Assembly (NCBI GenBank): GCA_963722305.1
Contig: CAVRKE010000001.1
Span: 12,312-76,311, forward strand
Length of the DNA stretch: 64,000 bases
Direction of reading: 5' to 3'
Source of the DNA: Candidatus Levyibacteriota bacterium
GTDB taxonomy: Bacteria > Patescibacteriota > Microgenomatia > Levybacterales > UBA12049
Part shown: positions 6,505 to 30,453 of the stretch, piece after piece
How the letters are laid out: each line of letters starts with the position of its first letter
How positions within the stretch are numbered: the first letter of the stretch is position 1
Made by a program: the position numbers and the translations under genes
Notes under the pieces: model-generated
Database searches by the model: none
What the model saw: the letters and a program-made list of their open reading frames with translations, nothing else
What the model was told of the DNA's origin: nothing

Positions 6505-6506
6505 TT

Positions 6507-8875: not shown

Positions 8876-8877
8876 AT

Positions 8878-9786: not shown

Positions 9787-9787
9787 T

Positions 9788-12124: not shown

Positions 12125-13198
12125 GTGAGAGTTGGTATCTTTGATCCATATCTTGACGATCTCGGCGGGGGAGAAAAGTATATGCTGACAATTGCCGAGT
12201 GTCTTTCGGAGGATAATTTAGTCGATGTTTTTTGGGACAATGAAGATGATCTGCAAGCACTTTTGGAACGTTTTCCTCTAAATCTTTTTAAAGTTAATCT
12301 TGTTCACAATATTTTTTCAGCAAGAACGTCAACCTTAACAAGACTAATCGAAACCAAAAAATACGACGTAATTATTTTTCTAAGTGATGGCAGTTTGCCG
12401 TTGGTTTTAGCAAAAAAGCTGTTCGTGCATATCCAGCAGCCTTTAACAACAATGCAGACCAGCGGTTCAATTATTAACAAGATAAAAATTGACAGAGTAA
12501 ATGGTTTTTTCTGCAATTCCGAGTTTACGAAATCGTTTATCGACAAACGGTTTCATCTAAAAACCACGATTCTGTATCCACCGGTTGTCCTGTCTCCTAA
12601 AAAGGTAGAAAAAGAAAATATTATTTTGCATGTTGGCAGGTTTAGAATAAAAAATATTAAAAACGACGATTATAAAAAGCAGGCAGTGATGCTTAATGCT
12701 TTCAAGAGCATGGTTAAGAATGGTCTTAAGGATTGGAAGTTTGTTTTGGCGGTAAGTATTCAGGAAAAAGATAAAGACGCGTTTGAAAGTATGAAAAAAA
12801 GTGCTGTCGGATTTCCGATAGAATTCCTGGTTAACAAAAATAACGACCAGCTTTGGGATATTTATTCTAAAGCAAAAATTTACTGGCATGCTTCAGGTTT
12901 TGGGGAAGACCTGGTTGCTTATCCGGAGTTTGCTGAGCATTTTGGAATTTCCACAGTTGAAGCCATGGGAGCGGGGGCTGTGCCGGTGGTAATTAACGCG
13001 GGAGGGCAAAGAGAAATTGTCAACGAGGGCATAAATGGTTTTTTTTGGGATACAATTGAAGAGCTTAAGGCAAAAACTTTAAGATTAGTCAATGATGATA
13101 TGTTGCTTAACAAGCTCTCGGAAAAAGCAAGGCAATCCGCACAGGGATTTAGTAAAGAAAAATTTTGTCAGGCAGTTAACAGTTTAATTTCTCAATGA
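12125..13198 (+). CDS. GT4 glycosyltransferase
   Basis: 'EFAEHFGISTVEAMGAGAVPVVINAGGQREIV' (E-x7-E). N-terminal Gly-rich 'DDLGGGEKY'. GTG start at 12125. Confidence 0.75.
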   Translation: MRVGIFDPYLDDLGGGEKYMLTIAECLSEDNLVDVFWDNEDDLQALLERFPLNLFKVNLVHNIFSARTSTLTRLIETKKYDVIIFLSDGSLPLVLAKKLFVHIQQPLTTMQTSGSIINKIKIDRVNGFFCNSEFTKSFIDKRFHLKTTILYPPVVLSPKKVEKENIILHVGRFRIKNIKNDDYKKQAVMLNAFKSMVKNGLKDWKFVLAVSIQEKDKDAFESMKKSAVGFPIEFLVNKNNDQLWDIYSKAKIYWHASGFGEDLVAYPEFAEHFGISTVEAMGAGAVPVVINAGGQREIVNEGINGFFWDTIEELKAKTLRLVNDDMLLNKLSEKARQSAQGFSKEKFCQAVNSLISQ

Positions 13199-15486
13199 AA
13201 AAGTTATTACCGCTTATTTTGATTGGTGGAGTAATTCTAATTTTCTTTTGGCAGTTTCTGCTGAAAGGTTTTTTGCCTATCCCATCGGACACAATCGTCG
13301 GACTTTACTATCCATTTCGGGATGTCTATTTTCAGACCAATCCAAATGGGCTTCCCTACAAAAATTTTTTAATTACCGATCCCGTCCGGCAACAAATTCC
13401 CTGGAAGAATTTGGTGGTTGAGGCGGAAAAAAGACTGACTCTTCCGCTTTGGAATCCCTATAATTTTGCCGGTACACCACTTCTGGCCAATTTCCAGTCG
13501 GCGGCTTTTTATCCTTTAAATCTTCTATTTTATTTTCTGCCTTTTGAGCTTTCCTGGAGTTTGCTTATCCTTCTTCAGCCGCTTCTTGCAGGTATATTTT
13601 TGTACTTATATCTTAGAAACTTAAAGCTTAAAAAAATAGCCAGCGTTTTTGGCGCAATTTCGTTTTCACTCTGCGGATTTTTTGTTGCTTGGCTGGAGTG
13701 GGGGACAATACTGAATACTGCTCTCTGGCTGCCCTTGATTTTGCTCTCAATCGATAAGATTTTCCAAATCAAAAATAATAAATCTCCTTCGACCCTGAGC
13801 TCAGGACCGAAGGGAAAAATCAAAAATCTTCTTTGGCCGTTGGTTTTCATTTTATCCTTAGTCTGTGCTTTTTTTGCCGGACATTTACAGACGTTTTTCT
13901 ATCTGGCCGTGATTGTTCTAGCTTATTTTCTGGCACGTTGGTTTCAACATCGGTCGGAAATTAAATCCCTGCTGTTGTTTATTGTTATTTGCTTTGTGCT
14001 TATTTTATTAGTTTTGCCCCAGCTGATTCCGACACTTCAGTTTATTGCTCTTTCAGCCAGAAATCTCGACTTTCCTGCTTGGCAAACAAACCCGGGTTGG
14101 TTTATTCCCTGGCAAAATTTAATTCAATTCTTGGCTCCGGACTTTTTTGGCAATCCCGCGACCTTGAATTATTACGGAATTTGGAATTACGGAGAGTTTA
14201 GCGGTTACATCGGAATTTTGCCCTTGGTAATGGCTTTTTTCGCCCTTTTTTTCCGGAAAGATAAAAAAACGTTGTTTTTTGGTTCGGCTTTTTTTGTCTC
14301 GCTTTTATTTGCGCTGCCGACTATTTTTGCCAAACTTCCGTTTCAGTTTAATCTGCCTTTCATTGCTACCGCTCAGCCTACGAGGCTTCTCTTCATTACG
14401 GATTTTTCCTTAAGCGTATTGGCGGCTTTTGGTTTAGATTACTTTTTGCTTTCAAAGAACAGGAAATATATTTTGCCGATTCTGATAATTTTTGGTCTGG
14501 GTTTTGTCGGCCTTTGGAGTTTTGTTTTAAGATTTGACGCAGAGATTTTATCCCCGGTAAATTTGACAGTTGCCAAACAAAATTTAATATTACCAACATT
14601 AATCTTTATTCTAATTTCGATCCTGATTCTAATTGTGGTTTTTTACCAAAGAAACGAAAAGCTTTCAAAACTACTGTTCGGAATATTGGTTTTAATTACA
14701 ATTGGAGAGCTTTTAAGATTTGGTTGGAAGTTTGAGCCGTTTACCAATCAAGCCTATTTTTTCCCCTCAACTTCGGTAATGGCCTTTTTACAAAAGCAGG
14801 AACAGCCGTTCAGAATTATGGCAACGGATTCAAGAATTCTTCCCCCTAATTTTTCGTCCAGCTATAAATTGCAAACTCTTGACGGTTACGATCCTTTATA
14901 TCTGCAAAGGTTCGGAGAGTTGATGGCAGCCTTAAAAAGAGACAGACCGGATATTACACCGCCGTTTGGCTTTAACAGAATAATTACTCCGCAGGATCCT
15001 TCATTAAAGATAATCGATTTGCTGGGAGTTAAATATGTGCTAAGCTTGGATAAGCTTAGCAGTCCAAAGCTCAAGCCCGTTTTTACAGACGGCTTTGTGC
15101 AAGTTTATGAAAATCAGGAGGCCTTTCCCCGTGCTTTTTTTGTCAAGCATACGCTAATAGCAGATTCAAATCAGCAGGCAATCGACAAACTTTTCAGTTC
15201 GGAAAATATTTTGCATGATACCGCGGTGGTAGAAAATGTGCAAAATTTCAAAGCCAATTGGAGCTTGGGGCAAGCAAGGATCATAAAGTATGAGCCAAAT
15301 ATAATTGACATCCAAACAACTAACGCCGGCGAAGGGTTTTTGGTTTTAACCGATAGTTTCTATCCAACCTGGCATGCAACCATCGACGGAAGGGAAGCTA
15401 CTATTTATCTGACTGATTATAATTTTAGAGGAATAATTATTCCAAAGGGGAAACATCTTGTCGAATTTTATGATACCCTTTTTTAA
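13195..15486 (+). CDS. YfhO-family-like GT-C membrane glycosyltransferase
   Basis: 763 aa and polytopic. N-terminal 'LWNPYNFAGTPLLANFQSAAFYPLNLLFY'. C-terminal 'FYPTWHATIDGREATIYLTDYNFRGIIIPKGKHLVEF' matches the YfhO C-terminal signature. Confidence 0.65.
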   Translation: MKKLLPLILIGGVILIFFWQFLLKGFLPIPSDTIVGLYYPFRDVYFQTNPNGLPYKNFLITDPVRQQIPWKNLVVEAEKRLTLPLWNPYNFAGTPLLANFQSAAFYPLNLLFYFLPFELSWSLLILLQPLLAGIFLYLYLRNLKLKKIASVFGAISFSLCGFFVAWLEWGTILNTALWLPLILLSIDKIFQIKNNKSPSTLSSGPKGKIKNLLWPLVFILSLVCAFFAGHLQTFFYLAVIVLAYFLARWFQHRSEIKSLLLFIVICFVLILLVLPQLIPTLQFIALSARNLDFPAWQTNPGWFIPWQNLIQFLAPDFFGNPATLNYYGIWNYGEFSGYIGILPLVMAFFALFFRKDKKTLFFGSAFFVSLLFALPTIFAKLPFQFNLPFIATAQPTRLLFITDFSLSVLAAFGLDYFLLSKNRKYILPILIIFGLGFVGLWSFVLRFDAEILSPVNLTVAKQNLILPTLIFILISILILIVVFYQRNEKLSKLLFGILVLITIGELLRFGWKFEPFTNQAYFFPSTSVMAFLQKQEQPFRIMATDSRILPPNFSSSYKLQTLDGYDPLYLQRFGELMAALKRDRPDITPPFGFNRIITPQDPSLKIIDLLGVKYVLSLDKLSSPKLKPVFTDGFVQVYENQEAFPRAFFVKHTLIADSNQQAIDKLFSSENILHDTAVVENVQNFKANWSLGQARIIKYEPNIIDIQTTNAGEGFLVLTDSFYPTWHATIDGREATIYLTDYNFRGIIIPKGKHLVEFYDTLF

Positions 15487-16424: not shown

Positions 16425-18395
16425 ATGAACATCCTAAGCGTCTCTTTCTGGTTTTACTTTGCATATTTTTGGTTAACAGTCTTTATTGCATTTTACATAC
16501 CTGGCATTTTTTTTATAAAGAGGTTCAACTTAACTACATTTCAAAATTTTGTCTTGGGGACAATTGTCGGAATGGTTTTTTGGGGTGTCCAAGGATTTAT
16601 TTTTGGTTATCTTAACCTCAGGCTCCTTTCGTATATTTACTTGTTGTTTTTTCTATTAGCCTGGTTTAGGACAAAACCAAAACTGCCTAAAATACACATC
16701 GCAAGAAAGAAATTTGACCTATTATTAATTATAATAATTACAGTTGGAGTTTTTATCCAACTTACTTCTGTTTGGTTTACCGGCGTAATGACAAAAAACG
16801 GATTATATTTTTGTTGCGGTTCCCAAATGGACAACATTTTGCAGATATCAATTACAGATCAAATTGTAAAAAATTTTCCACCGCTAGAACCCGGGATGTA
16901 TCCGGTTGTTATGCAAAATTACCATTATTGGGATAGTCTGGTGATGGGAGAGTTGATTAGAGTTTTTAAATTACCACTGATAGCGACAGATTATCAGTAT
17001 ATGACTATTCTTCTTTCTTTGTTTTTGGGTTTGTCGGCAATAGTCTTTTCACAAGTGTTAAGGCTTAAAAAAACCTTTATGCGTTGGCTGATCTTTTTTC
17101 TTTATTTTGGTGGAGATTTTATTTGGATACTAATAGCAATTTTCCGAGGAAAAGATTTTTTTGGGATGACTCCCATGGAAAGCGGCCAGCAGTTTCTAGA
17201 AAATATTCCAAGAGCAACAGCCGTTTTGGTCTTTTTTTCATTTGCCTCAATTTTTACGTTATGGATTAAAAGAAAAGATAGGTGGAGTGGATTTCTAATG
17301 GCAGTTACTGCGGCAACTTTACTTGGATTTAAGATCTATTTAGGAATTTTTGTCTTCTGCGGACTATTTGTATTGGCGCTTTATTATTTTATCAAAAAAA
17401 AATATTCGCTGTTAAGCCCGATCGTTTTTGCAATAATTTTAGGGTTAGTAATATACTTACCGGTTAATTCGGGGGCAGGGGGGTTGTTCTTTACCGGAAC
17501 ATGGCGATTTGAAAACTTTATAGTCCAACCTTTTTTCGGCACATTAAATCGGTTGGAGCTTGCTAGGGTAATATATTCACAACACCACAACATTTTAAGA
17601 GTTATAGAATACGAGTCGATATACGCATTGCTCTTTATATTTGCTATTTTTGGTACGAAGTTATTGGGGTTTTTCCAAAACAAAAAGTCCTTATCATTAT
17701 TGCCCAAAGAGTTAAATATACTATTAATTTCCGGTATTACCGTAAGTGCTGTTGCTGGTTTATTCTTTAATCAAACGACCGGAAACTCAAATACCTTCAA
17801 TTTTTTGGTGAATGTTTTCATCATTGGTTCAATCTACACAGCTCTTGCATGCTACTATTGGTTTGAAAAAAAACGTGGGATTTTGGTAAATTTTTTAATA
17901 CTTATAATAATTGTTCTGACTATCGCCAGACCACTGAATCAAACTTATAAAAACTTAAATTACCTTATTAACGGGACAGGCTTTTTAGTTTCAGATAACG
18001 AATTATCAGTAATAAATTTTCTTACTAAACAAAAAGACGATTCCAAGTTTGTGATAGTTGATCCTAAGATAACAATGAGTTTAAAGGCACCGTATCTTAG
18101 TTTTTTGACAGGAAAAAAAATATTTTTGTCAGGCCAAAGCGAGGAATTGGAAACTCATGGTGTAAATTTTTCAAGCAGGCAAAAAATACAGGATACTATT
18201 TTTTATGGATTAAATCCTGCTGCGGTCAGCGCTTATCTGCTTAAAAATAATATCGGATATATTTATATGCGCAGTGAAGATATGCTTACCAGTACAGATT
18301 CGGCAATGTTTTTCAATGAAATCATCAGCAATAAAGAGGTAAAAATATTAGAAGTGGATCCGGCTAAAGCAAAGTTATATTTAGAACAGCATTGA
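16425..18395 (+). CDS. Polytopic membrane protein 'family C' (putative GT-C/polymerase-like), paralog of 48017-49951
   Basis: 656 aa with more than 12 TM helices. Shared loop motif 'FPPLEPGMYPVVMQNYHYWDSLVMGELIRVFKLP' (compare 'FPPNEPGLFGIALINYHFWFHLVTAELIRVFHLP'). Confidence 0.5.
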   Translation: MNILSVSFWFYFAYFWLTVFIAFYIPGIFFIKRFNLTTFQNFVLGTIVGMVFWGVQGFIFGYLNLRLLSYIYLLFFLLAWFRTKPKLPKIHIARKKFDLLLIIIITVGVFIQLTSVWFTGVMTKNGLYFCCGSQMDNILQISITDQIVKNFPPLEPGMYPVVMQNYHYWDSLVMGELIRVFKLPLIATDYQYMTILLSLFLGLSAIVFSQVLRLKKTFMRWLIFFLYFGGDFIWILIAIFRGKDFFGMTPMESGQQFLENIPRATAVLVFFSFASIFTLWIKRKDRWSGFLMAVTAATLLGFKIYLGIFVFCGLFVLALYYFIKKKYSLLSPIVFAIILGLVIYLPVNSGAGGLFFTGTWRFENFIVQPFFGTLNRLELARVIYSQHHNILRVIEYESIYALLFIFAIFGTKLLGFFQNKKSLSLLPKELNILLISGITVSAVAGLFFNQTTGNSNTFNFLVNVFIIGSIYTALACYYWFEKKRGILVNFLILIIIVLTIARPLNQTYKNLNYLINGTGFLVSDNELSVINFLTKQKDDSKFVIVDPKITMSLKAPYLSFLTGKKIFLSGQSEELETHGVNFSSRQKIQDTIFYGLNPAAVSAYLLKNNIGYIYMRSEDMLTSTDSAMFFNEIISNKEVKILEVDPAKAKLYLEQH

Positions 18396-18433
18396 GGCTT
18401 TAATTTTCAAATAAAAAGTTATAAAATTGTTTA

Positions 18434-19144
18434 ATGAAATTGTCGATAATTATTCCGGTCTATAACGAAGAGAAAACAATCCTGGAAATTTTAGACCGGG
18501 TTATAAAAGAAGCAATCCCCGGAGTAGAAAAAGAAATTATTGTGGTTGACGATGGTTCTACGGATTTAACTCGCCAAAAATTAAAAACAATAAAAGGGGA
18601 TAATTTAAAGATAATTCTACATCAAAAAAACGGCGGGAAGGGGATGGCGGTCAGAACGGGAATTGAAAACGCCAGCGGCGAATACATTATTATTCAGGAT
18701 GCGGATTTGGAATACCATCCGAAATTTATAAAGAACTTAGTCCAGCCGATTCTTCAAAAACAGGCGGAGGTTGTCTACGGCACCAGACTTAACAGGTTAC
18801 CCCACCTTCAGGGGGAAGAAAAGAAAAATTTATTTATTCTTCATTATTTCGGTAACCGGTTTTTAAGTTTGGTAACCAGTCTTTTGTACGGTCAGTGGAT
18901 TACTGACATGGAAACCTGTTATAAGCTTTTTCCCAAAAAAGCTTTCGCAGGAGTAAAGCTTAACGCCAGGGGGTTTGAATTAGAACCGGAAATCACCGCA
19001 AAGCTCTTAAAACGAGGCTATAAAATTAAGGAAATTTCCATATCGGTTACTCCAAGAGGCTATAATGAAGGAAAGAAGCTGAATACCGCCAGAGATGGAC
19101 TAAAAGCGTTATGGTCTTTGGTCAAATACCGCTTCTCGGACTGA
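18434..19144 (+). CDS. GT2 glycosyltransferase, DPM1-like polyprenyl-phosphate sugar synthase type
   Basis: 'LSIIIPVYNEEKTI', 'IIVVDDGSTDLT' and 'IIQDADLEYHP'. Confidence 0.8.
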   Translation: MKLSIIIPVYNEEKTILEILDRVIKEAIPGVEKEIIVVDDGSTDLTRQKLKTIKGDNLKIILHQKNGGKGMAVRTGIENASGEYIIIQDADLEYHPKFIKNLVQPILQKQAEVVYGTRLNRLPHLQGEEKKNLFILHYFGNRFLSLVTSLLYGQWITDMETCYKLFPKKAFAGVKLNARGFELEPEITAKLLKRGYKIKEISISVTPRGYNEGKKLNTARDGLKALWSLVKYRFSD

Positions 19145-19223
19145 AAGTAAACAATGACAAAATTTTTTTTAACCTCAGCAAATTTTTGCTCAATTTCCAA
19201 AAAGATGTTAAGGAAAATGTTTT

Positions 19224-19832
19224 ATGAAGCAAGTAAAAATTAGTTTAACCAGAGGTTTTGGGCTACTGGAAAATTATTTAGCTAAGAGAAGAGCCGATAT
19301 GGCCAACAAATTGATGCGGGAAGACCATAAAAAGGGAAGAGTGCTTGATATCGGTTGCGGAACTTTTCCTTATTTTCTCGTATCTTCGGAGGCTAGGGAA
19401 AAGTACGGAATGGATCCGTCTCTCAATCTGGCTTTATTAAAAGGGCAAAAAAGTAAGATAATTCTCAAAAAAATAAAAGCCGGGGAAGGAAAATTACCGT
19501 TTGCAGATGGTTATTTTGATTCCGTCACCATGTTGGCTGTTTTTGAACACATCGAGAACGATAAGCTGCCAAGGCTTCTAGAAGAAATTAATAGAATTTT
19601 GCGGAAAGACGGGATCTTTATTATCACTACACCTGCTCCCTGGTCGGATAGGCCTCTGCATTACTTTGCCAACTTCGGGTTAATCAGTAAAGAGGAGATT
19701 CATGAACACAAACACAATTTGACACACAAAAAGATTAAAGAGTATCTTAAAGATGCGGGGTTTTCCAAAAGCAAGGTCAAGAATGGTTTTTTTGAGTTTT
19801 ATTTAAACATGTGGTTTAAAGCGGAGAAATGA
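19224..19832 (+). CDS. Class I SAM-dependent methyltransferase
   Basis: 'VLDIGCGTFPYF' (motif I) and 'FDSVTMLAVFEHIEND'. AAGGA Shine-Dalgarno 8 nt upstream. Confidence 0.8.
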   Translation: MKQVKISLTRGFGLLENYLAKRRADMANKLMREDHKKGRVLDIGCGTFPYFLVSSEAREKYGMDPSLNLALLKGQKSKIILKKIKAGEGKLPFADGYFDSVTMLAVFEHIENDKLPRLLEEINRILRKDGIFIITTPAPWSDRPLHYFANFGLISKEEIHEHKHNLTHKKIKEYLKDAGFSKSKVKNGFFEFYLNMWFKAEK

Positions 19833-21442
19833 AAAAAATACTGAACTGGAAATTGGCTTTAATCTTAGTTGTTTTACTGGCTGCGACTTTAAGGTTTTAT
19901 GCCTTGGACAAAATTCCGGCCAGTTTAAACCCCGACGAAGTCGCTTTGGGCTACAACGCTTTTTCGCTATTGCATACAGGTGCGGACGAACACGGTGTTT
20001 TCCTTCCCTTGGCGCTGCAGTCTTTTGGTGATTGGAAGCTTCCCGGATATTCATATGTTAGCATACTTCCAATTGCGCTATTTGGGCTTAACGCTTTTTC
20101 CGTGAGAATTACCAGCGCTATCGCCGGAGTGGTCGGTGTAATCTTAATCTATTTCATCACTTTCCGGCTTTTTAAAAGGAAAAGTTTAGCATTACTGACT
20201 GCTTTACTTTTTGCTTTATCTCCGTGGAGTATTTATTTTTCCAGAGCCGCCTACGAGGTGAATTTGGCGACGACCTTTTTTCTGGTTGGACTATTTAGTT
20301 TTCTTAAGTTTCTCGATGTAGAAAAAAATAGAATTTGGTGGAGCATTTTGTCGGTGATTTTCTTTGGAATGACCGTATTCACCTACAATTCTTACATCAT
20401 CTTCACCCCGCTTTTCCTGCTTGGCTTAGGTTACTTTTTTAGAAAAGAGATTAAATTTAATTGGCGTCTGTTAGCGCCGCTTGCAATGCTTGTAATATTT
20501 GTGGGAGCATCTTTCTATTCTTCTATTTTTACCAGTACCAATAAAACCTCAACACTGCTGGTTTTTAACGACCCAAATACTATTTATAACCGGGTTGAAA
20601 AAATAAGAGGTGACAAGGCTTCGACCAACCCGTTGGAAAAAGTGATTTACAATAAATTTACCGGCGGTCTCTATCAATTCGGACAAAATTATTTAAGTGC
20701 TTTTTCTCCGTCATTTCTGTTTGATAAAGGCGGGGATAAATTGGTAGATAACTTGGGATACTTTGGAAATATCTACTTGATTGATGCTTTGTTTATTTTC
20801 ACCGGTTTTGCCGGTTTATTTCTGCAAAAGGAAAAAAACCTGAAAATACTGTTGCTGTGGTTATTTTTGTCCCCCATTCCGGCTGCTTTGACAAAATCAC
20901 CGCAAAGTTCAACCAGGTTATTTTTACTGATGCCGATACTGGTAATCATTTCAGCTTACGGTGCTGTTCAAATTATTGAGTTTCTGAAAGGAAGAAACCT
21001 GATAAACTATTGCCTGAAGCTGCTCGTTCTCGTTCTATTTATTTATAACGTGGCGTTATTTATGGATGGTTATTTTGTGCATTTAAATGTACAAAGAGCC
21101 AGGTTTTGGGATTACGGATACCAGCAGGCAGTAGAGCTTTCGCAAAAATATCCCGATTATAAAGTAGTGATGCGGGGCCCGGAAAATTTTCCCTACATCT
21201 ATTTTCTTTTTTACAACCAATACGACCCAAATAAGTTCAGAAAAGAGGTTAAGTATTATCCCTTGACCAGCGAAGGTTTTTTATATGTTAAAAGTTTTGG
21301 AAAATTTAGTTTTCCCGAAACAATTGATAATCTTCGGTTGGAGCCCAAGACAATTTATATTGACGATAATTACCTAAGATATAAGGATAAAATTTATCTT
21401 CCTTCAGGTGACGCCGTTCTGTCGTATCTAATCAATAAATGA
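19829..21442 (+). CDS. Pmt/ArnT-like GT-C glycosyltransferase (paralog 1 of a tandem triplet)
   Basis: 'IPASLNPDEVALGYNAFSLLHTGADEHGVFLPL..FGDWKLPGY'. C-terminal 'WDYGYQQAV..FPYIYFLFYNQYDP'. Confidence 0.75.
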   Translation: MKKILNWKLALILVVLLAATLRFYALDKIPASLNPDEVALGYNAFSLLHTGADEHGVFLPLALQSFGDWKLPGYSYVSILPIALFGLNAFSVRITSAIAGVVGVILIYFITFRLFKRKSLALLTALLFALSPWSIYFSRAAYEVNLATTFFLVGLFSFLKFLDVEKNRIWWSILSVIFFGMTVFTYNSYIIFTPLFLLGLGYFFRKEIKFNWRLLAPLAMLVIFVGASFYSSIFTSTNKTSTLLVFNDPNTIYNRVEKIRGDKASTNPLEKVIYNKFTGGLYQFGQNYLSAFSPSFLFDKGGDKLVDNLGYFGNIYLIDALFIFTGFAGLFLQKEKNLKILLLWLFLSPIPAALTKSPQSSTRLFLLMPILVIISAYGAVQIIEFLKGRNLINYCLKLLVLVLFIYNVALFMDGYFVHLNVQRARFWDYGYQQAVELSQKYPDYKVVMRGPENFPYIYFLFYNQYDPNKFRKEVKYYPLTSEGFLYVKSFGKFSFPETIDNLRLEPKTIYIDDNYLRYKDKIYLPSGDAVLSYLINK

Positions 21443-23058
21443 AAAAAATTTATTTGCTGTTGTTTGCCATAATACTGCTTGCCGGGTTTTTAAGGCTCTA
21501 TAGCTTAGGGTTTAATCCGCCTTCCTTGGATTGGGATGAAGCCGCCTGGGGATACAACGCTTATTCCCTGGGTCTTGACGGAAAAGACGAATTCGGAAGG
21601 TTTTTGCCCATTACTTACTTGGAATCTTTTGGCGATTACAAACCACCACTATATGCATATTTGGATATTGTTCCCGTCAAAGTGTTGGGACTAAACGAAT
21701 TTGCAACCAGATTCCCCTCGGCCTTGATTGGAACATTGGCGGTGCTTTTAACTTTTTTCCTGGTTAAAAGGTTATTCTGGAAATCTAAAAATGCAAATGC
21801 ATACGCTTTAACGGCCAGTTTTTTCCTGGCCATTTCCCCCTGGCATATTTTATTATCGCGGGCGGCTTTCGAAGCCAATGTCGCCAGTTTTTTGATAATG
21901 TTCGGGGTTTGGGCGTTTTTAGCCGGTGTACAGGATAAAAAGTGGTATCTTATCTTATCCGCCATTGCTTTTGCGCTCTCTTTTTACACCTTTAATACCG
22001 CCAGAGTTGTTTCGCCGATTTTAGTACTGCTTCTGGCGATTTGTTTTAGAAAAAAATTATGGGAAATAAAAAAAGTGGCGTTTTTCGCCGTTTTAGTCGG
22101 ATTTCTAATTTTTCTTCCGACTGCCAAATTCTTACTTAGTCCGCAAGCAGGTACCAGATTTCAAGAAGTAAACATTTTTTCGGACCCAGATATAGTCAAG
22201 ACTTCAAACCAGGAAATCGCCAATGACTCAAATGCTGTCTGGTCAAAAGTTATCCATAACCGCAGATTCCTTTACGGACTTGATTATCTGCAGCATTTTT
22301 TTGATAACTTAAATCCGAGCTTTCTATTTATAAGCGGTGACAATAATCCTAAATTTTCGACCCAAAATGTCGGTCAGATGTATATTTGGGATATCCCATT
22401 TTTTGTTTGCGGCATTCTGCTTTTACTGAAAAAAAAGGAGAAGAACTGGTGGTTAATCCCTTTGTGGCTTTTAATCGGAATTATCCCCGCCGCCACCGCC
22501 AAAGAAACGCCTCATGCCTTAAGAATAGAATCTTCTTTGCCGACTTTTCAAATACTGGCCGCATATGGCTTTGTCCAATTAGCTGACGCTATTAAGAAAT
22601 ATAAAAAAGCGATAGTTGGTTGTTTATTGTTTCTGCTGTTTTTAAATTTTACTTATTTTTGCCATGATTATTTCACTAACTATATTTCCCAATACTCCGG
22701 TGAATGGCAATACGGTTATAAGCAATCAATCGATTATGTCAAATCCGTCGAAAAGAATTATGATTTTGTGCAGATTACAACTTACTTTGGCAGGCCCTAC
22801 ATTTACTATCTTTTCTATACCAAGACCAATCCCGGGTATTTTCGAGAAACTGCCAATGTCACCAGAGACGTTTTTGGTTTTGTGTCGGTTAACGGCTTTG
22901 GTAAATATCTGTTCCCGCAAAATTATAACTATAACTTAAGCGCTACCAAGAAGGTTCTTTATCTAAACACTTCCGATAGTGTGCCAAAAGGCGCTAAAAT
23001 TTTGCAGAGATTTTATTTATTAAACGGTAAGGAAATCATGGATGCCTATACAATATGA
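21439..23058 (+). CDS. Pmt/ArnT-like GT-C glycosyltransferase (paralog 2)
   Basis: 'PPSLDWDEAAWGYNAYSLGLDGKDEFGRFLPI..FGDYKPPLY'. C-terminal 'WQYGYKQSI..RPYIYYLFY'. Confidence 0.75.
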   Translation: MKKIYLLLFAIILLAGFLRLYSLGFNPPSLDWDEAAWGYNAYSLGLDGKDEFGRFLPITYLESFGDYKPPLYAYLDIVPVKVLGLNEFATRFPSALIGTLAVLLTFFLVKRLFWKSKNANAYALTASFFLAISPWHILLSRAAFEANVASFLIMFGVWAFLAGVQDKKWYLILSAIAFALSFYTFNTARVVSPILVLLLAICFRKKLWEIKKVAFFAVLVGFLIFLPTAKFLLSPQAGTRFQEVNIFSDPDIVKTSNQEIANDSNAVWSKVIHNRRFLYGLDYLQHFFDNLNPSFLFISGDNNPKFSTQNVGQMYIWDIPFFVCGILLLLKKKEKNWWLIPLWLLIGIIPAATAKETPHALRIESSLPTFQILAAYGFVQLADAIKKYKKAIVGCLLFLLFLNFTYFCHDYFTNYISQYSGEWQYGYKQSIDYVKSVEKNYDFVQITTYFGRPYIYYLFYTKTNPGYFRETANVTRDVFGFVSVNGFGKYLFPQNYNYNLSATKKVLYLNTSDSVPKGAKILQRFYLLNGKEIMDAYTI

Positions 23059-24686
23059 ATAAAAAACTAATTTGGATAATCTTAATTGCAATTGTTGTTC
23101 TTGGAGGGGTTTTGCGACTTTGGCAGCTTGGACAGACGCCGGCTTCTCCGGATTGGGATGAAGTGGCGCTCGGCTATGACAGCTATTCGATTCTTACTAC
23201 CGGCAGGGACCAGTTTGGTCAGTTTTTGCCGGTGGTGCTTCGCTCATTGAATGATTACAAGCCGGCGCTTTATGCCTATCTGACTATTCCCTCAATTGCC
23301 GCTTTTGGTTTAAATATTTTCGCCGTAAGGCTTCCTTCGGCAATTTTTGGGATATTGTCGATTATAGGAGTTTTTTACCTGGTCCAAGAACTTTTCGAAA
23401 ACCATAAATTTAAAAATTGGCTGTCCTTAATTGCCAGTTTTTTATTTGCAATATCGCCGTGGTCAATTCAGTTTTCCAGAGTTGCCTTTGAGTCAAACGT
23501 CGGAACCGCTTTAAATATTTTTGCCGCGTTGTTTTTCTTAAAAGGTCTTAAAAAACCGTGGTGGTTGTGGCTTTCGGCAATTTTGGCCGGATTATCCATT
23601 TACGCTTATCAAAGCGAAAAAGTATTCACGCCGCTTTTAGCTCTAGTTTTGCTGCTAATTTTTAGAAAACAGCTGTTTTCTAAAAAAAAGCAATACCTTA
23701 TTTCTGCTTTTATCATCGGGGCAATAGTGGTGCTGCCAATGTTATTTTACACGTTTACCGATAAATCATCTCTGGCAAGATTGCAAGGAACCAGCGTTTT
23801 TGCCTCTCAAACAGAGCTCTTAAAGGCAAATTTACAAAAACTTAGTCGGGACCAGCTAAATAATGATAAGCTGGGGCTTATTTTAGACAACCGGAGGATT
23901 GTTTATGCCAAGACAATTTTGCAGAATTATTTATCGCATTTTGACCTAAACTGGTTGTTTATTACCGGCGATATTGCCAGGCACCACGCCCACGACATGG
24001 GAATTTTATATTTATTCGACCTGCCGTTTATTTTCCTTGGGATATATTGGCTTTTGTTTGGAGAATTCGACAAAAAAACAAAATTGGTCATCTTCTCCTG
24101 GATTTTGCTTGCTCCAATTCCTGCGTCGATTACCACCGGAGTTCCCAGCGCGGTCAGAACGCTTAATTTTCTGCCGGCTTTACAGATTTTAACGGCAGTG
24201 GGAATTTTAGCGGCGTTTACGACGGTTCAGAAATACAAACAGGGAAAATATGTTCTACTTACGGTTTGCGGGTTATTATTCTTGTTTAATTTTGCTTATT
24301 ATTTAAATCAGTATTTTGTGCAGGATAATTACTATGATTCGGCTTACTGGCAATACGGTTATAAACAAGCTGTAGCGGAAGCAAAATTGATTGGAAATAA
24401 CTACAAACAGATTGTGGTTTCCGATAAATATCCTATGGATAACTCACAGGAATTCTTCCTTTTTTATCTTCAGTTTTCGCCAAGTGAGTATCAAAAGAGA
24501 GGAGCATATTCTCTAAATCACTCTTTTGGAAAATATACCTTCAGGGCAATTAATTGGCAAAAGGATTCTGCAAGTAAGGATATTCTATATATTGGTTCTC
24601 CGGGAGAATTTCCGCAAAATAGCCAAAGCCTAAAAACAATTTACAATTTGGGCGGTTCAGCGGCCATAAAAATAGTTGGAACATAA
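23055..24686 (+). CDS. Pmt/ArnT-like GT-C glycosyltransferase (paralog 3)
   Basis: 'PASPDWDEVALGYDSYSILTTGRDQFGQFLPV..LNDYKPALY'. C-terminal 'WQYGYKQAV', 'GSPGEFPQN' and 'IKIVGT'. Confidence 0.75.
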   Translation: MNKKLIWIILIAIVVLGGVLRLWQLGQTPASPDWDEVALGYDSYSILTTGRDQFGQFLPVVLRSLNDYKPALYAYLTIPSIAAFGLNIFAVRLPSAIFGILSIIGVFYLVQELFENHKFKNWLSLIASFLFAISPWSIQFSRVAFESNVGTALNIFAALFFLKGLKKPWWLWLSAILAGLSIYAYQSEKVFTPLLALVLLLIFRKQLFSKKKQYLISAFIIGAIVVLPMLFYTFTDKSSLARLQGTSVFASQTELLKANLQKLSRDQLNNDKLGLILDNRRIVYAKTILQNYLSHFDLNWLFITGDIARHHAHDMGILYLFDLPFIFLGIYWLLFGEFDKKTKLVIFSWILLAPIPASITTGVPSAVRTLNFLPALQILTAVGILAAFTTVQKYKQGKYVLLTVCGLLFLFNFAYYLNQYFVQDNYYDSAYWQYGYKQAVAEAKLIGNNYKQIVVSDKYPMDNSQEFFLFYLQFSPSEYQKRGAYSLNHSFGKYTFRAINWQKDSASKDILYIGSPGEFPQNSQSLKTIYNLGGSAAIKIVGT

Positions 24687-25976
24687 ATGAAAAAAGTTTT
24701 CAAGAAGGCTTTAAAGTTCATTTTACAGCACAAAGCTACAATTTTTGTCCTGTTGATTTTTTTATGCGAACTTTTCTTAAGGTTTTACCAATTCGACCAA
24801 AAAAATCCATTCGGTTATGACCAGGTTGACAACGCCTGGGCGGCTAAAAACCTAATCGTCAATCACCAGTTTCCGTTGGTCGGTATGGTCGCCAAAGGCA
24901 ATAGCGGGATTTATATCGGGCCGCTTTATTATTATTTAATCGCTATCTTTTATTGGCTATTTAATTTAAACCCGATTGCTTCGGGAATTTTCGCCGGCGT
25001 GACCAGCATTTTTACTTTTTGGGTATTATTTTACTTTGTCAGAAAACTGTTCAATACCGAAGTGGCTTTAATCGCAGTGCTAATTAATACTTTTATTTTC
25101 TCCGGAATAATGTTTGACCGGGTACAGTGGCCTGTTGCTTTTATTCCTTCTGTTTCGTTAATAATTTTCTACCTTCTTTATAAAGTCTTGCTGGGACAAC
25201 CCAAATACCTGGTTTGGTTGGCCGTGGCGGTAGGTTTTATGTTCAGCGTCCATTTTACCGTGATATTTTTTCCGATTATTATTCTACTGACCCTGCCGCT
25301 TTTTCCAAGAACTAAAGAAACCGTAAGATATTTATTGTTATCTGTTCCGGTCCTTATTTTATTTTTAGCGCCAAATATTATTTATCAGCTAGTTCACAAG
25401 GGTGCAAGCGGAACGTTGGTTGAATATATCAAGGACAATTTGCACGGTTTCCACTTAAGAAGAGTTCTCCAACTAACGGATGATGCTTTAATCCAGTTTA
25501 ACAATTATTTGGGTTGGACCTTTGGAAAATATCTTAAATATCTCGTTCTGCCAATATTTTTCGTTTTATATTTATATAATTCAGTCAACAAGAAAAAGTT
25601 GATTTTCGTTTATCTAATTTTACTCTGGTTTATTGTTCCATGGTTAGTTTTTGCCTTATATAGGGGAGAGATTAGCGACTATTATTTTTCAATTAATCGG
25701 TTTATTGCCTTAGCAACTTTAGCTTATCTTATTTACAGAGTTTGGAATTTGAAATTTGTATTAACAAAAGCAGCGGTAGTGGTGGGGCTTGTAGCCTTAT
25801 GTCTATTTAACTTAGGGCTTTTCTGGCCTTATCAGAATGAAACCAGTCTTCAGGTTAAGGAAAAAGAGGCCTTAAGTAAAATCAGCTTGGGCGAAAAAAT
25901 TAACTATCAGCAGGGGGTTCCGGAAGCTTACATTTACTATTATTTAACAACGCAGAAGGATAAGAATGTTCACTAA
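24687..25976 (+). CDS. Polytopic membrane protein 'family B' (putative GT-C glycosyltransferase, DxxRD loop motif)
   Basis: 'FGYDQVDNAWAAKNLIVNHQFPLVGMVAKGNSGIYIGPLYYYL' followed by about 10 TM helices. Confidence 0.5.
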   Translation: MKKVFKKALKFILQHKATIFVLLIFLCELFLRFYQFDQKNPFGYDQVDNAWAAKNLIVNHQFPLVGMVAKGNSGIYIGPLYYYLIAIFYWLFNLNPIASGIFAGVTSIFTFWVLFYFVRKLFNTEVALIAVLINTFIFSGIMFDRVQWPVAFIPSVSLIIFYLLYKVLLGQPKYLVWLAVAVGFMFSVHFTVIFFPIIILLTLPLFPRTKETVRYLLLSVPVLILFLAPNIIYQLVHKGASGTLVEYIKDNLHGFHLRRVLQLTDDALIQFNNYLGWTFGKYLKYLVLPIFFVLYLYNSVNKKKLIFVYLILLWFIVPWLVFALYRGEISDYYFSINRFIALATLAYLIYRVWNLKFVLTKAAVVVGLVALCLFNLGLFWPYQNETSLQVKEKEALSKISLGEKINYQQGVPEAYIYYYLTTQKDKNVH

Positions 25977-27432
25977 ATTATTTAAGCAAGCTGCTACTCA
26001 GTTTTTTAAGCATCAGAAGCTCATTTTCTATGTATTGTTATTATTGCTATTGTTTCTTGCTTTATTCCCTAGATTAATAGTGTTATTGAACCAAAATCCG
26101 GTTTTTGGTTTTGATCAGGGTCGGGATTACCTGGCGGTGAAAAGCATCATCGTTGACCATAAACTGACTCTAATTGGGGAAGAGCTTGGTGCGGGGGCTG
26201 CGGGAATTTCCGGAATTTTTCAGGGACCTTTTTATTATTACCTTCTCACCATCCCGTTTATTTTGTTCAACGGAAACCCCGTCGGCGGTGTTTATGTGAT
26301 GATTGCCTTAAGTTTATTGACCATTCTAGCCGGATATTATTTGGGAAATAAGTGTTTTGGCAGATGGGGTGGGTTGTTAACAGGTTTGTTAATTGCTATA
26401 TCACCAATTTTAATCGGTGAGGCAAAATTTATTTGGAACCCGCACTGTCCGCCGTTTTTTATCCTTTTGACTTTTATTTTTCTCTACCTATTTATGATTA
26501 AGAAGAAAGGTTTATTTATTTTCCTGACAGCATTTTTTGCCGGATTTATTTACAATTTCGAAATTGCCGTTTCCGTGCCGGTATCGTTAACCTTAGTTAT
26601 TTTTAGTATTTTCTTGTTTGGAAAAAGCTTAAAATATTACTTTTATTTACTGTTGGGACTTTTACTGGCGTACTCACCGGCAATGCTGTTTGAAGTACGT
26701 CACCACTTTATGGCCATGCATAGTTTCGCTGCGTATCTTACCAACCACAACCAATTAGGCAACATTCCAAATTCTTTTTATGTTGTTAATCATTTGAGGG
26801 CATTTGTTGATATTTTTTCGGAAAGTCTTCAGATAACAAACTTTGATGTTGCCTTATTTTGTCTTTTGGCCGTTATTTTGCTAAGCGTTTTCTTGCTACT
26901 TAAAGAAAAGAATCAATCTCTCAAGAAAATGGTTATTTTTATGCTGCTGCTAATACCTGTCAATTATGTTGTTTTTTATTTTTTGAAAAACTGGCTGTGG
27001 ACTTATTATTTAACCGATTTAACCATCGCTTACATATTTTTACTTTCTTATATTATTTATACATTCTGCAAAAGAAAATATTATAAATCTAGCGCATTGC
27101 TCCTCCTGGTCGTTGGTTTTCTGGTTTTGGTTGGTTTGGTAAACTCGATTCAGACTTCCATCCACGATTATTCCGATTACGGTGGTACTGCCAAATTAAA
27201 AGGTAAGGAGGATGCCATAGATTATATTTATAAGCAAGCGAAAGGCAAACCGTTTGGAATGTTTGTTTTTTCACCGCCAATTTATACTTACCCTTATGAT
27301 TATTTGATTTGGTGGTATGGAGAAAGAAAATATGGTTATGTTCCTTATGCAGAAAAAAAAGACAGGTCTTTTTACTTATCGAAAAAGATCCATATCAGCC
27401 CTGGACTTATCAGGGGTGGCTGCAAACAGTAA
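25966..27432 (+). CDS. Family B polytopic membrane protein (putative GT-C)
   Basis: 'FGFDQGRDYLAVKSIIVDHKLTLIGEELGAGAAGISGIFQGPFYYYL'. It is a paralog of 24687, 46472-48017 and 51562. Confidence 0.5.
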   Translation: MFTKLFKQAATQFFKHQKLIFYVLLLLLLFLALFPRLIVLLNQNPVFGFDQGRDYLAVKSIIVDHKLTLIGEELGAGAAGISGIFQGPFYYYLLTIPFILFNGNPVGGVYVMIALSLLTILAGYYLGNKCFGRWGGLLTGLLIAISPILIGEAKFIWNPHCPPFFILLTFIFLYLFMIKKKGLFIFLTAFFAGFIYNFEIAVSVPVSLTLVIFSIFLFGKSLKYYFYLLLGLLLAYSPAMLFEVRHHFMAMHSFAAYLTNHNQLGNIPNSFYVVNHLRAFVDIFSESLQITNFDVALFCLLAVILLSVFLLLKEKNQSLKKMVIFMLLLIPVNYVVFYFLKNWLWTYYLTDLTIAYIFLLSYIIYTFCKRKYYKSSALLLLVVGFLVLVGLVNSIQTSIHDYSDYGGTAKLKGKEDAIDYIYKQAKGKPFGMFVFSPPIYTYPYDYLIWWYGERKYGYVPYAEKKDRSFYLSKKIHISPGLIRGGCKQ

Positions 27433-28331: not shown

Positions 28332-29293
28332 AAATTTTAGTCACCGGTGGTGCGGGATATATCGGCAGTATAACCGTAAAATTACTGCAGGACAAAGGAC
28401 ATCAGCCGGTTGTATTTGATAATTTAATTTATGGGCATAAGGAAGCAGTTAGTTGTCCGCTGATTGTCGGGGATTTATTGGATAAAGACTTTCTTTTTAA
28501 GAGCTTTGCAGAGGAAAAATTTGATGCCGTAATTCATTTTGCCGCTTACGCTTTGGCCGGAGAGTCAATGGAAAATCCTTATAAGTACTTTTATAACAAT
28601 ATTCAGGGAGGATTGAATCTACTTGATTTGATGAGGCAAAATAACATTCCAGACATAATTTTTTCTTCAACTTGTTCTATTTATGGCACGCCAAAAGTTT
28701 TACCGGTAAGTGAAGATGAAGCGAAGAAACCGGAAAGCGTTTATGGCGAGTCTAAGCTGATGTTTGAAAAAATTCTTGATTGGTACGACACAATTTACAA
28801 AATAAAGCACATAAGCCTTCGCTATTTTAATGCCGCGGGCGCGGCCTTAGATGCAAGTCTAGGAGAGGATCATAATCCCGAGAGCCACATCATCCCGGTG
28901 GCAATAAAAGCGGCAATTAATAATCAGCCGTTTAATCTTTTTGGAGACGATTATTCCACCAAAGACGGCACTTGTATTAGAGATTATATTCATGTCCAGG
29001 ATTTGGCCGAAGTGCACATTCAGGCAATAAATAAGCTAAAGGAGACTAAAACCAGTGACGCCTTCAATCTGGGTACAGGCAATGGTTATTCTAACCTTGA
29101 GGTGTTAGAGATGGTCAAGAAAGTAAGCGGCATAAATCTTCAGATTGTCAAGAAACCAAGAAGAGCAGGGGATCCGCCAATGATTTTTGCCGATAACAAA
29201 AAAGCCAAAAAAGAGTTGGGTTTTAACCCTCAGTACTCAGATCTTGAGACAATTGTCAAAACCGCTTGGCAATGGCACAAAAAACAAAGTTAA
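28328..29293 (+). CDS. galE: UDP-glucose 4-epimerase (NAD-dependent epimerase/dehydratase, GalE-like)
   Basis: 'MKILVTGGAGYIGS' Rossmann motif, 'YGTPKVLPVSEDE' and 'YGESKLMFEKIL' (YxxxK). About 320 aa. The ATG at 28328 overlaps the upstream stop (ATGA). Confidence 0.8.
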   Translation: MKILVTGGAGYIGSITVKLLQDKGHQPVVFDNLIYGHKEAVSCPLIVGDLLDKDFLFKSFAEEKFDAVIHFAAYALAGESMENPYKYFYNNIQGGLNLLDLMRQNNIPDIIFSSTCSIYGTPKVLPVSEDEAKKPESVYGESKLMFEKILDWYDTIYKIKHISLRYFNAAGAALDASLGEDHNPESHIIPVAIKAAINNQPFNLFGDDYSTKDGTCIRDYIHVQDLAEVHIQAINKLKETKTSDAFNLGTGNGYSNLEVLEMVKKVSGINLQIVKKPRRAGDPPMIFADNKKAKKELGFNPQYSDLETIVKTAWQWHKKQS

Positions 29294-30453
29294 AAGTGCA
29301 TAAAGTTATAAAGTTCATAAAGTCAAAATTATTCAAGAGAATTATTTTTGTAATTCTTTTGGCCGTAATTGTTTTTAACGTCGGTTCGACGGTCTGGAAA
29401 CTTAGGTCAACTTATTTTTCATCCAATTATAATGCAAGTTTTTTATCTCTTCAAAAAATTTATTATGATTCCATTTATAAAAACAAACACGGCGGTTTTG
29501 TTCCAGACGAAGTCCTATACTCGTATATTGGCGGGGCTTTAATGAAAGGTAAAAGCCCAATTTTTCTAAATCCTGAAGTTCCACCTTTGGGGACATATAT
29601 TATCGGCTTATCGACAGTTGTTTTTAATAATCAGTATATTGTAATTGTTTTATTTGCAGCCTTGTCATTGTATCTAATATATCTAGTGGGATTACAAATT
29701 TATTCATCGAGATTTCTTGCTTTGATTCCGCCTTTATTGTTTTCCTTTGAACCGATTTTTAAAAATCAATTGGTATACGCTCCTTTGTTAGATATTATCC
29801 AATTAACTTTCTTGCTTTCAATCTTCTATTTTTTCAACAAAGCATTGCACAGTAAGAATAATTTTCTACTTTATATTGTACTAGTAAACATATTTTTCGA
29901 TTGTTTCATTTCCACAAAATTTTTCGGCACAGGAATAACAGTTGCATTTGCTGTTTTATTTCCATTAGCTATTCACAAAGAATGGAGAAGGCTAATGACA
30001 ACTTTAATTACCATGCCAATTGCTGTGATTATACTTTATGCCAATTATCTAAAAGTTCTTATAGACGGTTATCCGTTAAACAAATTTTTGGGAATTCAAA
30101 AATGGATCTTAATTTACAATGAAGGCCATTTAATGAAACCGTTTAGTATTTGGCCTCTTTTGTTATTTAACAAATGGTATCAGTCGTTTGGTAAACAATC
30201 CGTATCCTCCGATCCGCAATGGTTAATTTCGTGGCCATTTATTACAATTATTTCCCTTATTACAATTGTGATTTCTTTTATAAAGAAAATATCTAAAAGA
30301 GAAGTAGAGATAATGTTTTTTTGGATAATTTCATACTTACTACTAATGAGTTTTGTAGATGCCAGTACTCGTTACTTTGTTATTCTTATTCCAATATTGT
30401 ATATGATTGCTTTATACGGGATAATAGAATTTGTAAAGGTGATAAAGAAATGA
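29266..30453 (+). CDS. ArnT/Pmt-like polytopic membrane protein (putative GT-C)
   Basis: 'FVPDEVLYSYIGGALMKGKSPIFLNPEVPPLGTYIIGLS' resembles the ArnT first-loop and 'EKPPL' region. About 10 TM helices. The start is uncertain: ATG 29266 overlaps galE, and GTG 29296 is an alternative. Confidence 0.5.
   Translation: MAMAQKTKLKVHKVIKFIKSKLFKRIIFVILLAVIVFNVGSTVWKLRSTYFSSNYNASFLSLQKIYYDSIYKNKHGGFVPDEVLYSYIGGALMKGKSPIFLNPEVPPLGTYIIGLSTVVFNNQYIVIVLFAALSLYLIYLVGLQIYSSRFLALIPPLLFSFEPIFKNQLVYAPLLDIIQLTFLLSIFYFFNKALHSKNNFLLYIVLVNIFFDCFISTKFFGTGITVAFAVLFPLAIHKEWRRLMTTLITMPIAVIILYANYLKVLIDGYPLNKFLGIQKWILIYNEGHLMKPFSIWPLLLFNKWYQSFGKQSVSSDPQWLISWPFITIISLITIVISFIKKISKREVEIMFFWIISYLLLMSFVDASTRYFVILIPILYMIALYGIIEFVKVIKK

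Follow-up and report, generated by a model that had tools for sequence, protein, structure and literature searches.

The 64,000-nucleotide stretch of Candidatus Levyibacteriota DNA analysed here (hereafter the window) carries five paralogous genes, G0a, G0b, G1, G2 and G3, all read from the forward strand, which belong to the PMT_2 (GT39/GT83-like) superfamily of GT-C glycosyltransferases and which, judging from sequence and from a structural model, probably encode catalytically competent enzymes. They form an uncharacterised, lineage-specific subfamily within a known enzyme class. We estimate at roughly 0.7 the probability that their products use a polyprenyl-phosphate donor to glycosylate an extracytoplasmic acceptor.

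Three of these genes stand back to back, as had been described in a first-pass annotation of this DNA. G1 (19829-21442; 537 amino acids), G2 (21439-23058; 539 amino acids) and G3 (23055-24686; 543 amino acids), the copy chosen for modelling, overlap through ATGA sequences at positions 21439 and 23055, and the same overlap at 19829 joins G1 to the methyltransferase gene that precedes it. The two further paralogs that had been noticed at the start of the window were also recovered. G0b (773-2419) is complete, with 548 amino acids from the ATG at 773 and an alternative ATG at 746, and its nearest paralog is G3 (45-49% identity depending on the region). G0a (1-780) is cut by the window start and retains only its C-terminal 259 codons: no stop codon interrupts reading frame 1 between base 1 and the one at 778-780, and this portion corresponds to the C-terminal domain preceded by the last four membrane helices. 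Of the five copies G0a has diverged most; from the FLFxxGD motif onward it aligns with the other paralogs, with 26-33% identity. In a five-way alignment the paralogs are 29-35% identical to G1, and G2 and G3 share only about 35% of their residues.

The Pmt/ArnT-like identity given to these proteins was borne out. All four complete paralogs matched Pfam PMT_2 (PF13231) with 43-46 bits for a gathering threshold of 26.1 (E-values of 4.3e-11 for G0b, 5.4e-11 for G1, 4.1e-11 for G2 and 6.7e-12 for G3); the corresponding region of G0a is removed by the window edge. The threshold of the PMT family (PF02366) was also passed by G1 (33.1 bits for a threshold of 22.7). At E≤0.01 the paralogs gave no Pfam match to MIR or PMT_4TMC, and none was found to Pfam STT3. 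The NCBIfam matches were all below threshold: Agl23 (TIGR03663, cut-off of 126.25 bits) was matched by G1 with 35 bits and by G2 with 41.4 bits, and the ArnT equivalog NF009784 (cut-off of 567) by G1 with 20.4 bits and by G2 with 24.2 bits, G3 and G0b giving no match to the latter. When PDB sequences were searched, the sole match was the Cupriavidus ArnT, with an E-value of 0.37 for G2 alone and of 0.0034, over helices 2-7, for a profile of 36 family sequences; this profile retrieved neither Pmt1, Pmt2 or Pmt4 nor any oligosaccharyltransferase (OST) from the PDB. The nearest homologues are metagenomic proteins, and those with a named source belong to Candidatus Levybacteria or the 'Patescibacteria group', the NCBI label that they bear being 'glycosyltransferase family 39 protein'. 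A literature search for such arrays in Levybacteria, Microgenomates or the candidate phyla radiation returned nothing relevant.

The AlphaFold2 model of G3 (predicted local distance difference test score, pLDDT, of 84.4; predicted template-modelling score, pTM, of 0.86) has the GT-C fold. Its 11 membrane helices include a helix 3 that is broken at P135 (97% conserved); loop 1 contains two juxtamembrane helices, helix 7 is followed by a long loop, and the C-terminal alpha/beta domain is well ordered. All five conserved GT-C features listed in the AftD preprint (10.1101/2019.12.22.885152) are seen in it. Comparison of the full model with the PDB by Foldseek returned STT3, AglB, ArnT and PglB with E-values of 4e-7 to 2e-5 and a probability of 1.00. 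STT3 and AglB were the top full-length matches, the best template-modelling (TM) scores were those of ArnT (0.55/0.55), which is also the nearest in length, and Pmt4 and Pmt1 ranked lower (1.7e-3 to 5e-2).

Each of the four complete paralogs has 11 predicted membrane helices. In G3, lysine and arginine residues are abundant at the N-terminus (MNKK) and in every predicted cytoplasmic loop (ENHKFKN, GLKKPW, FRKQLFSKKKQY, EFDKKTK and VQKYKQGKY), which places the N-terminus in the cytoplasm and the Asp-Glu loop, the loop spanning residues 236-315 and the C-terminal domain outside it. The first-pass annotation had ascribed to all five proteins an N-terminal loop motif, which was found as D(W)DE..GY(N/D)(A/S)(Y/F)S...G.D(E/Q).G.FLP in the four complete ones, the N-terminus of G0a lying beyond the window. 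In G3 the predicted catalytic site, D33-W34-D35-E36, is encoded by positions 23151-23162 and belongs to the first external loop. The Asp-Glu motif of loop 1 is a hallmark of GT-C enzymes and is needed for Pmt activity (PMC8698208). Among 227 family members D35 and E36 are each conserved at 99%, and the catalytic residues R21, D35, E36, R92, R142, E146 and R368 are all conserved at 95% or more. Positions conserved at 90% or more further include P29, P59, Y75, P135, W136, G316 and G383, and these core positions are found in the membrane core and its external loops. Residues 1-235, which make up the catalytic core, are indeed the most conserved region among the paralogs, with 41-49% pairwise identity, the range being 26-45% in the C-terminal domain and 18-38% in the loop 236-315, and the view that the N-terminal regions are quite divergent has to be given up.

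We then looked at how widely the array is distributed. A scan with the C-terminal domain, keeping one genome per species, gave 80 loci whose record titles are mostly Levybacteria/Levyibacteriota, Patescibacteria or plainly generic, and the open reading frames (ORFs) of these loci were assigned by their best BLASTP match to the window proteins. G2 orthologues (42-73% identity) were located directly upstream of G3 orthologues (44-69%) in nearly all the loci; G2 orthologues with at least 45% identity number 67 in these loci, and G3 orthologues 71. Orthologues of G1 (49-58% identity) were found in four loci (L007, L020, L062 and L067). At the G2/G3 junction, compared in 65 loci, the genes mostly overlap or are separated by at most 10 bases, the commonest arrangement being the four-base ATGA overlap (17 loci). 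Since G2 and G3 are only about 35% identical whereas the orthologues of each are conserved across genomes, the duplication predates the divergence of these genomes, and the comparison of sequences thus indicates that the array is ancient. Many loci that carry it, among them L005, L006, L019 and L021, are titled 'uncultured Gammaproteobacteria bacterium'; their gene content matches that of the contigs titled Levybacteria, so these titles look like placeholders or errors.

One relative, L082 (ENA contig_72208, 3751-11632), encodes proteins about 90% identical to those of the window and was compared with positions 16425-27432. Its gene order is the GT2 gene GT2u (see below), the methyltransferase gene, an extra paralog, G1, G2 and G3, so that there are four tandem copies instead of the three found here. 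The extra paralog is 27-31% identical to all the window copies, the G1 orthologue is 86% identical to G1, and the genes U1, D1 and D2 that flank the array in the window are absent. The core is thus stable, and GT-C genes are gained and lost at the periphery. The ratios of nonsynonymous to synonymous substitution rates (dN/dS) against L082 are 0.107 for G1, 0.073 for G2 and 0.081 for G3, with dS values of 0.58-0.82, and those of the C-terminal domains range from 0.07 to 0.11: all three copies, in every region, are under purifying selection. This comparison of orthologues was used in place of dN/dS between the paralogs, which was discarded because at 26-49% amino-acid identity the synonymous sites would be saturated. 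Divergence of the paralogs and purifying selection both agree with the diversification after duplication that had been suggested for the array; the synteny of the G2 and G3 orthologues shows, however, that the duplication was not recent.

The two orthologue groups also allowed us to ask where G2 and G3 differ. A site was considered to distinguish them when it is conserved at 85% or more in the G2 orthologues and in the G3 orthologues, yet differs between the groups. Nine of the 28 sites so defined fall in the loop 236-315 (codons 23760-23999 in G3), which is long and external and connects membrane helix 7 to helix 8; this is the densest region, with 11.2 sites per 100 residues as compared with 4.0 for the C-terminal domain, and an example is R309-H310-H311 in G3, which is K-F-S in G2. 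In the G3 model the loop, about 80 residues long and helical, is flexible (pLDDT of 50-77), and its position is that of PL4 of ArnT and EL5 of PglB, two loops that become ordered upon substrate binding (10.1101/2019.12.22.885152). By its site density and by this equivalent position, the loop 236-315 would be at least as good a candidate determinant as the C-terminal domain if the paralogs differ in specificity.

The C-terminal domain follows the last membrane helix. In G3, residues 418-543 (24306-24683) comprise the end of helix 11 and an extracytoplasmic alpha/beta domain, with the WQYGY motif at 24348-24362; the domain spans about 391-777 in G0a, 2027-2416 in G0b, 21065-21439 in G1 and 22666-23055 in G2. 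The soluble portion amounts to about 115-125 residues rather than the 150 or so first attributed to it. Its conservation between the copies was upheld when the soluble tails alone were compared by BLASTP with an effective database size of 1e9 (E-values of 1e-23 for G0b-G3, 2e-10 for G0b-G2, 2e-5 for G1-G2 and 1e-4 for G2-G3), the tail of G0a being the weak one (0.5-3). The motifs proposed as common to all copies were less uniform, since 'GSP.E.P' is present only in G3 and G0b and 'WQYGYKQAV' is degenerate in G0a. Among the 227 family members only Y420, F470, P476 and F496 are conserved at 90% or more in this domain, where family-wide conservation mainly concerns aromatic and proline residues, and by column entropy it is the most variable region of the protein, family-wide as well as within both orthologue groups.

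Out of 1.84 billion proteins, a profile built from the five tails retrieved 2691 cluster representatives at E≤1e-3, of which 1021 also passed E≤1e-10. In all of the top 150 matches the domain lies at the extreme C-terminus, and the full-length ones measure 513-604 residues. The shorter matches that we inspected mostly start at internal methionines or else within or close to the last membrane helix, and thus look like fragments of full-length genes; the matches of this representative search gave no evidence of a stand-alone domain or of the domain on another scaffold. One protein of 217 residues (P0123) has a GT2-type N-terminus of about 55 residues fused straight to the last helix and the C-terminal domain, and may result from a deletion, from chimeric assembly or from an error in gene calling.

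The C-terminal domain had no counterpart among Pfam and NCBIfam models or PDB sequences, the profile search of the latter giving only a chance-level hit to a photosystem I subunit (E-value of 1.1). Its pLDDT is mostly about 90 or above within the full G3 model. Modelled alone (pLDDT of 84.5), it consists of a helix, a strand, two helices split by the conserved P476 and four strands; its best Foldseek match in the PDB had an E-value of 0.24 and a TM-score of 0.34, and there was neither an ArnT chain nor an OST soluble domain among the 50 matches listed. The domain profile did not align with the soluble domain of Escherichia coli ArnT, a weak test with a single target sequence, and the ArnT tail itself diverges beyond tblastn detection within proteobacteria (the Ralstonia and Cupriavidus matches end at residue 320). 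As claimed at the outset, the domain is not MIR: no MIR match was obtained, and it is located after the last membrane helix, whereas the MIR domain of eukaryotic protein O-mannosyltransferases (PMTs) lies in a loop between helices. We know of no PMT with a soluble C-terminal domain of about 115-125 residues. In solved GT-C enzymes a soluble domain in the periplasm has been described as present throughout, and its variability has been attributed to the substrates (10.1101/2019.12.22.885152). By analogy, the domain studied here is probably a lineage-specific, previously undescribed form of this usual GT-C soluble domain, an assignment based on position, topology and secondary-structure make-up and not on a fold-level match, and to see in it an acceptor-recognition module is a reasonable analogy.

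Upstream of the array lies GT2u (18434-19144, forward strand), which encodes a soluble GT2 of 236 residues predicted to be a polyprenyl-phosphate sugar synthase. It matched Pfam Glycos_transf_2 at 2.7e-35, and the PDB entry that it matched best over its full length was the Pyrococcus dolichol-phosphate mannose synthase (5mlz, 1.1e-18), with GtrB and ArnC next; in NCBIfam its best matches, to AglJ, dolichyl-phosphate hexose transferase and PpgS, were all under their cut-offs. Most of the fetched loci that extend far enough have a GT2u-like gene (46-77% identity) upstream of the array. GT2 enzymes of this class provide GT-C enzymes with sugar loaded onto polyprenyl phosphate, as they do in the three-component systems (PMC11127046). 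Between GT2u and the array stands MTu (19224-19832, forward strand), a gene for an S-adenosylmethionine-dependent methyltransferase (Pfam Methyltransf_23 and Methyltransf_11) whose stop codon overlaps the start of G1 and which occupies the same place in at least 11 related loci and in L082.

We thus propose that the dolichol-phosphate-mannose-synthase-like GT2 would load a sugar onto polyprenyl phosphate at the cytoplasmic face, that the lipid-linked sugar would be flipped across the membrane, and that each paralog would pass it to a cell-surface acceptor, with catalysis depending on the Asp-Glu motif of loop 1. Separate paralogs would serve separate acceptor sites, linkages or donors, and the choice of acceptor would be set jointly by the loop 236-315 and the C-terminal domain; the latter, as a form of the soluble domain that solved GT-C enzymes have beside the active-site cavity, would most likely help to form or cover the acceptor site. 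By analogy with characterised systems, the acceptor is most likely a cell-envelope glycopolymer that would be built or branched outside the membrane, and this is favoured by the presence in the window of large Wzx-type flippases (6507-7961 and 31491-32759), of many GT2 and GT4 genes and of a set of about 17 polytopic GT-C-like proteins to which the five paralogs, D1 and D2 belong.

The mycobacterial Emb/Aft/Mpt enzymes and the three-component glycan-modification systems could both serve as models for this glycopolymer reading. Like the array, the mycobacterial sets EmbA/B/C, AftA-D and PimE consist of several paralogous GT-C enzymes. They use polyprenyl-phosphate sugars to build and branch an external polymer and have soluble domains that vary with the acceptor (10.1101/2019.12.22.885152), but these domains are larger and include carbohydrate-binding modules (same reference), and beyond the fold the mycobacterial enzymes have no detectable sequence relation to the G paralogs. 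The three-component systems, a concept of extracytoplasmic glycosylation described in PMC11127046 (GtrA/GtrB/GtrC; Citrobacter ORF12/GT136), share with the window a GT2 next to a GT-C gene in a polysaccharide locus with Wzx flippases. They differ by having one GT-C per GT2, whereas arrays of three to four or more are seen here, and their GT-C proteins belong to another sequence family.

Two points weigh against our proposal. No small flippase of the GtrA or ArnE/F type was identified in the window, as seen from a Pfam scan of ORFs of at least 150 residues and with no search dedicated to it. The paralogs might also be true protein O-glycosyltransferases, functionally equivalent to the actinobacterial or eukaryotic Pmt and acting on serine and threonine residues of secreted, S-layer or pilus proteins, each with its own set of substrates. 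This second reading, which we hold to be unlikely but the most serious of the competing ones, would account for the PMT-type features of the array: the PMT_2 matches and the PF02366 score of G1, the Asp-Glu motif of loop 1, the 11 helices, which are also the topology predicted for the Streptomyces Pmt, and a GT2 next door whose best match is a dolichol-phosphate mannose synthase, an arrangement that mirrors the pairing of Ppm1 with Pmt in actinobacteria. Presumably the (W)DE(A/V)xxGY of loop 1 also resembles the WDEAHFGK-type loop of the yeast and human PMTs. However, the MIR and PMT_4TMC domains of the PMTs (GT39; yeast Pmt1, Pmt2 and Pmt4, actinobacterial Pmt) have no counterpart among the Pfam matches of the paralogs, the family profile finds ArnT and not Pmt1, Pmt2 or Pmt4 among PDB sequences, Foldseek ranks Pmt4 and Pmt1 well under STT3 and ArnT, so that the PMTs are structurally less similar to the G3 model than either, and the island looks polysaccharide-making, with its Wzx flippases and its GT2 and GT4 genes. 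The paralogs might, in another reading, be distant relatives of the oligosaccharyltransferases STT3, AglB and PglB (GT66), W(Q/D)YGY then being the counterpart of the WWDYG motif that contacts the acceptor peptide. The motif is indeed well placed, right after helix 11 and before an alpha helix (FWDYGYQQ in G1, EWQYGYKQ in G2, YWQYGYKQ in G3), W[DQ]YG[YHN] is confined to family members and their fragments among 994 ORFs of at least 150 residues in the fetched loci, and STT3 and AglB head the full-length Foldseek matches. Yet the functional Trp-Trp-Asp is not conserved, the aspartate being present only in the G1 of this window and other paralogs having Y(S/R)Q(Y/E)GYK; the DK or MI motif was not recognised in the paralogs; neither Pfam STT3 nor the profile search of PDB sequences brought out an OST, and none of the 50 listed matches of the isolated domain is an OST soluble domain. 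With its 115-125 residues the C-terminal domain is also shorter than the OST core unit of 152-181 residues (PMC3703281, from which the motif definitions were taken). As the residues that are functional in OSTs are not the conserved ones here, the link based on WQYGY was set aside as superficial, and we consider an OST relationship very improbable.

Two further readings concern the partners and the acceptor of these enzymes. G2 and G3, joined by G1 in some genomes, could be subunits of an obligate hetero-oligomeric GT-C complex instead of enzymes that act independently, an idea which is compatible with the other readings but which we find doubtful. Heteromers of this kind exist, the yeast Pmt1-Pmt2 and mycobacterial EmbA-EmbB complexes being both represented in the PDB, and the constant order and adjacency of the G2 and G3 orthologues in nearly all the fetched loci, the tight junction between them in most of the 65 loci compared and the retention of all catalytic-site residues in both proteins would fit such a partnership. 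Adjacency and stop/start overlaps are nevertheless common in the compact operons of Patescibacteria, the junction of the methyltransferase gene with G1 being of the same kind, and the copy number varies between close relatives (four in L082, three here). A bolder version, in which the C-terminal domains and W(Q/D)YGY of a G2-G3 machine would form a shared acceptor site for surface proteins or a wall polymer, is a little less plausible still; if true, it would describe a glycosylation apparatus specific to Patescibacteria, with an acceptor-recognition fold that has no solved counterpart. The paralogs might, finally, be ArnT-like enzymes that modify the head group of a membrane lipid or glycolipid. 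ArnT (GT83; PDB 5ezm and 5f15), the lipid A 4-amino-4-deoxy-L-arabinose transferase, is the only solved structure detected by sequence; it is close to G3 in length (537 versus 543 residues), gives the best TM-scores, takes its sugar from a polyprenyl-phosphate monosaccharide donor, and has a loop 1 with an acidic residue and a C-terminal domain that is soluble and periplasmic. Against this, the scores of G1 and G2 for the ArnT equivalog (20-24 bits) are far from the cut-off of 567, the G3 model has 11 membrane helices and not the 13 of ArnT, the C-terminal domain of ArnT has no detectable sequence similarity to that of the G family, and no other gene of the ArnT pathway was recognised in the window. 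To our knowledge Patescibacteria lack lipid A biosynthesis, and a lipid A acceptor is not expected there. We give this reading hardly any credit.

No new mechanism is revealed, and the proteins look like conventional GT-C enzymes dependent on lipid-linked sugars. What is new, without being mechanistically surprising, is an undescribed sequence form of an expected domain in an ancient and conserved array. Most Patescibacteria (the candidate phyla radiation) are uncultured; their genomes are small, and their presumed lifestyle is one of attachment to other cells, which surface chemistry probably shapes. A G2-G3 core that recurs under purifying selection in nearly all the related genomes fetched should thus be useful for studies of their envelope: the family and its conserved catalytic residues are defined, the loop 236-315 is the region that best separates the G2 and G3 orthologue groups, and the C-terminal domain has neither a Pfam model nor a detectable solved homologue.

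Two more distant GT-C genes of the PMT_2 type follow the array on the forward strand, D1 (24687-25976; 429 amino acids), directly 3' of G3, and D2 (25966-27432; 488 amino acids). They matched Pfam PMT_2 at 8e-10 and 5.4e-5, respectively, the latter with 23.9 bits and thus under the cut-off of 26.1, and their C-terminal tails are shorter than those of the G paralogs. D1- and D2-like genes are found 3' of G3 in many loci. On the other side of the array, U1 (16425-18395) encodes a multi-helix membrane protein of 656 residues. Comparison of the G-family domain profile with the tails of D1, D2 and U1 was non-significant (E-values of 0.009, 0.18 and 0.1, respectively; probability below 5%). The helix-strand-loop-helix pattern that surrounds PYIYYLFY, SYIYYY and PYLSFL makes the alignments look suggestive. 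In the D2 family a strongly conserved motif, DYxDYGGxAKxKGKxDAIDYIYKDAKGKxFGxxVFxPPVYTYPYDYLxWWYG, follows the last helix of D2 itself and of its orthologues in L002, L009, L010 and others. This motif bears a loose resemblance to the beginning of the G-family domain (QYGYKQAV...KIVV...PYIYYLFY), the profile comparison being non-significant.

Nearly the whole window is a glycan-biosynthesis island. Besides the many GT2 and GT4 genes, it contains an epimerase/dehydratase gene, methyltransferase genes, a gene of a phosphodiesterase family, and further membrane proteins of YfhO-like, PTPS-related and additional PMT_2-like types. Apart from the paralogs, D1 and D2, the GT-C-like proteins are encoded at 2416-4062, 4059-5804, 13195-15486 (YfhO), 16425-18395 (U1), 46725-48017, 48017-49951, 49962-51533 (reverse strand), 51562-53124, 57508-60666 and 60670-62145 (PMT_2). 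For a genome that we take to be about 1 Mb in size, about 17 such proteins in 64 kb would be a striking density.

Several other genes of the island deserve mention. The product of 57508-60666, with 1052 residues and about 22 predicted membrane helices, has no Pfam match. U1 and the product of 48017-49951 are paralogs (32% identity) with about 13 helices and soluble tails of about 150 residues; neither has a Pfam or NCBIfam match, they probably represent another unrecognised GT-C family, and their orthologues adjoin a GT2 gene in many related loci. Between epimerase and GT4 genes, 29266-30453 encodes a protein of 395 residues with about 9 membrane helices; it matches neither Pfam nor NCBIfam, is a candidate for a polymerase- or ligase-like function, and has a homologue of 388 residues in L082. 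Finally, several genes between 38613 and 48017 are apparently split or decayed: a GT4 gene (38613-39218 and 39155-39778) and a methyltransferase gene (39901-40293 and 40259-40519) are each divided into two pieces, fragments of membrane proteins are found at 40724-42253, and the N-terminus of a D2-like GT-C protein (46472-46783) is in another frame than the remainder (46725-48017). These split genes could be pseudogenes or result from frameshifts in the assembly.

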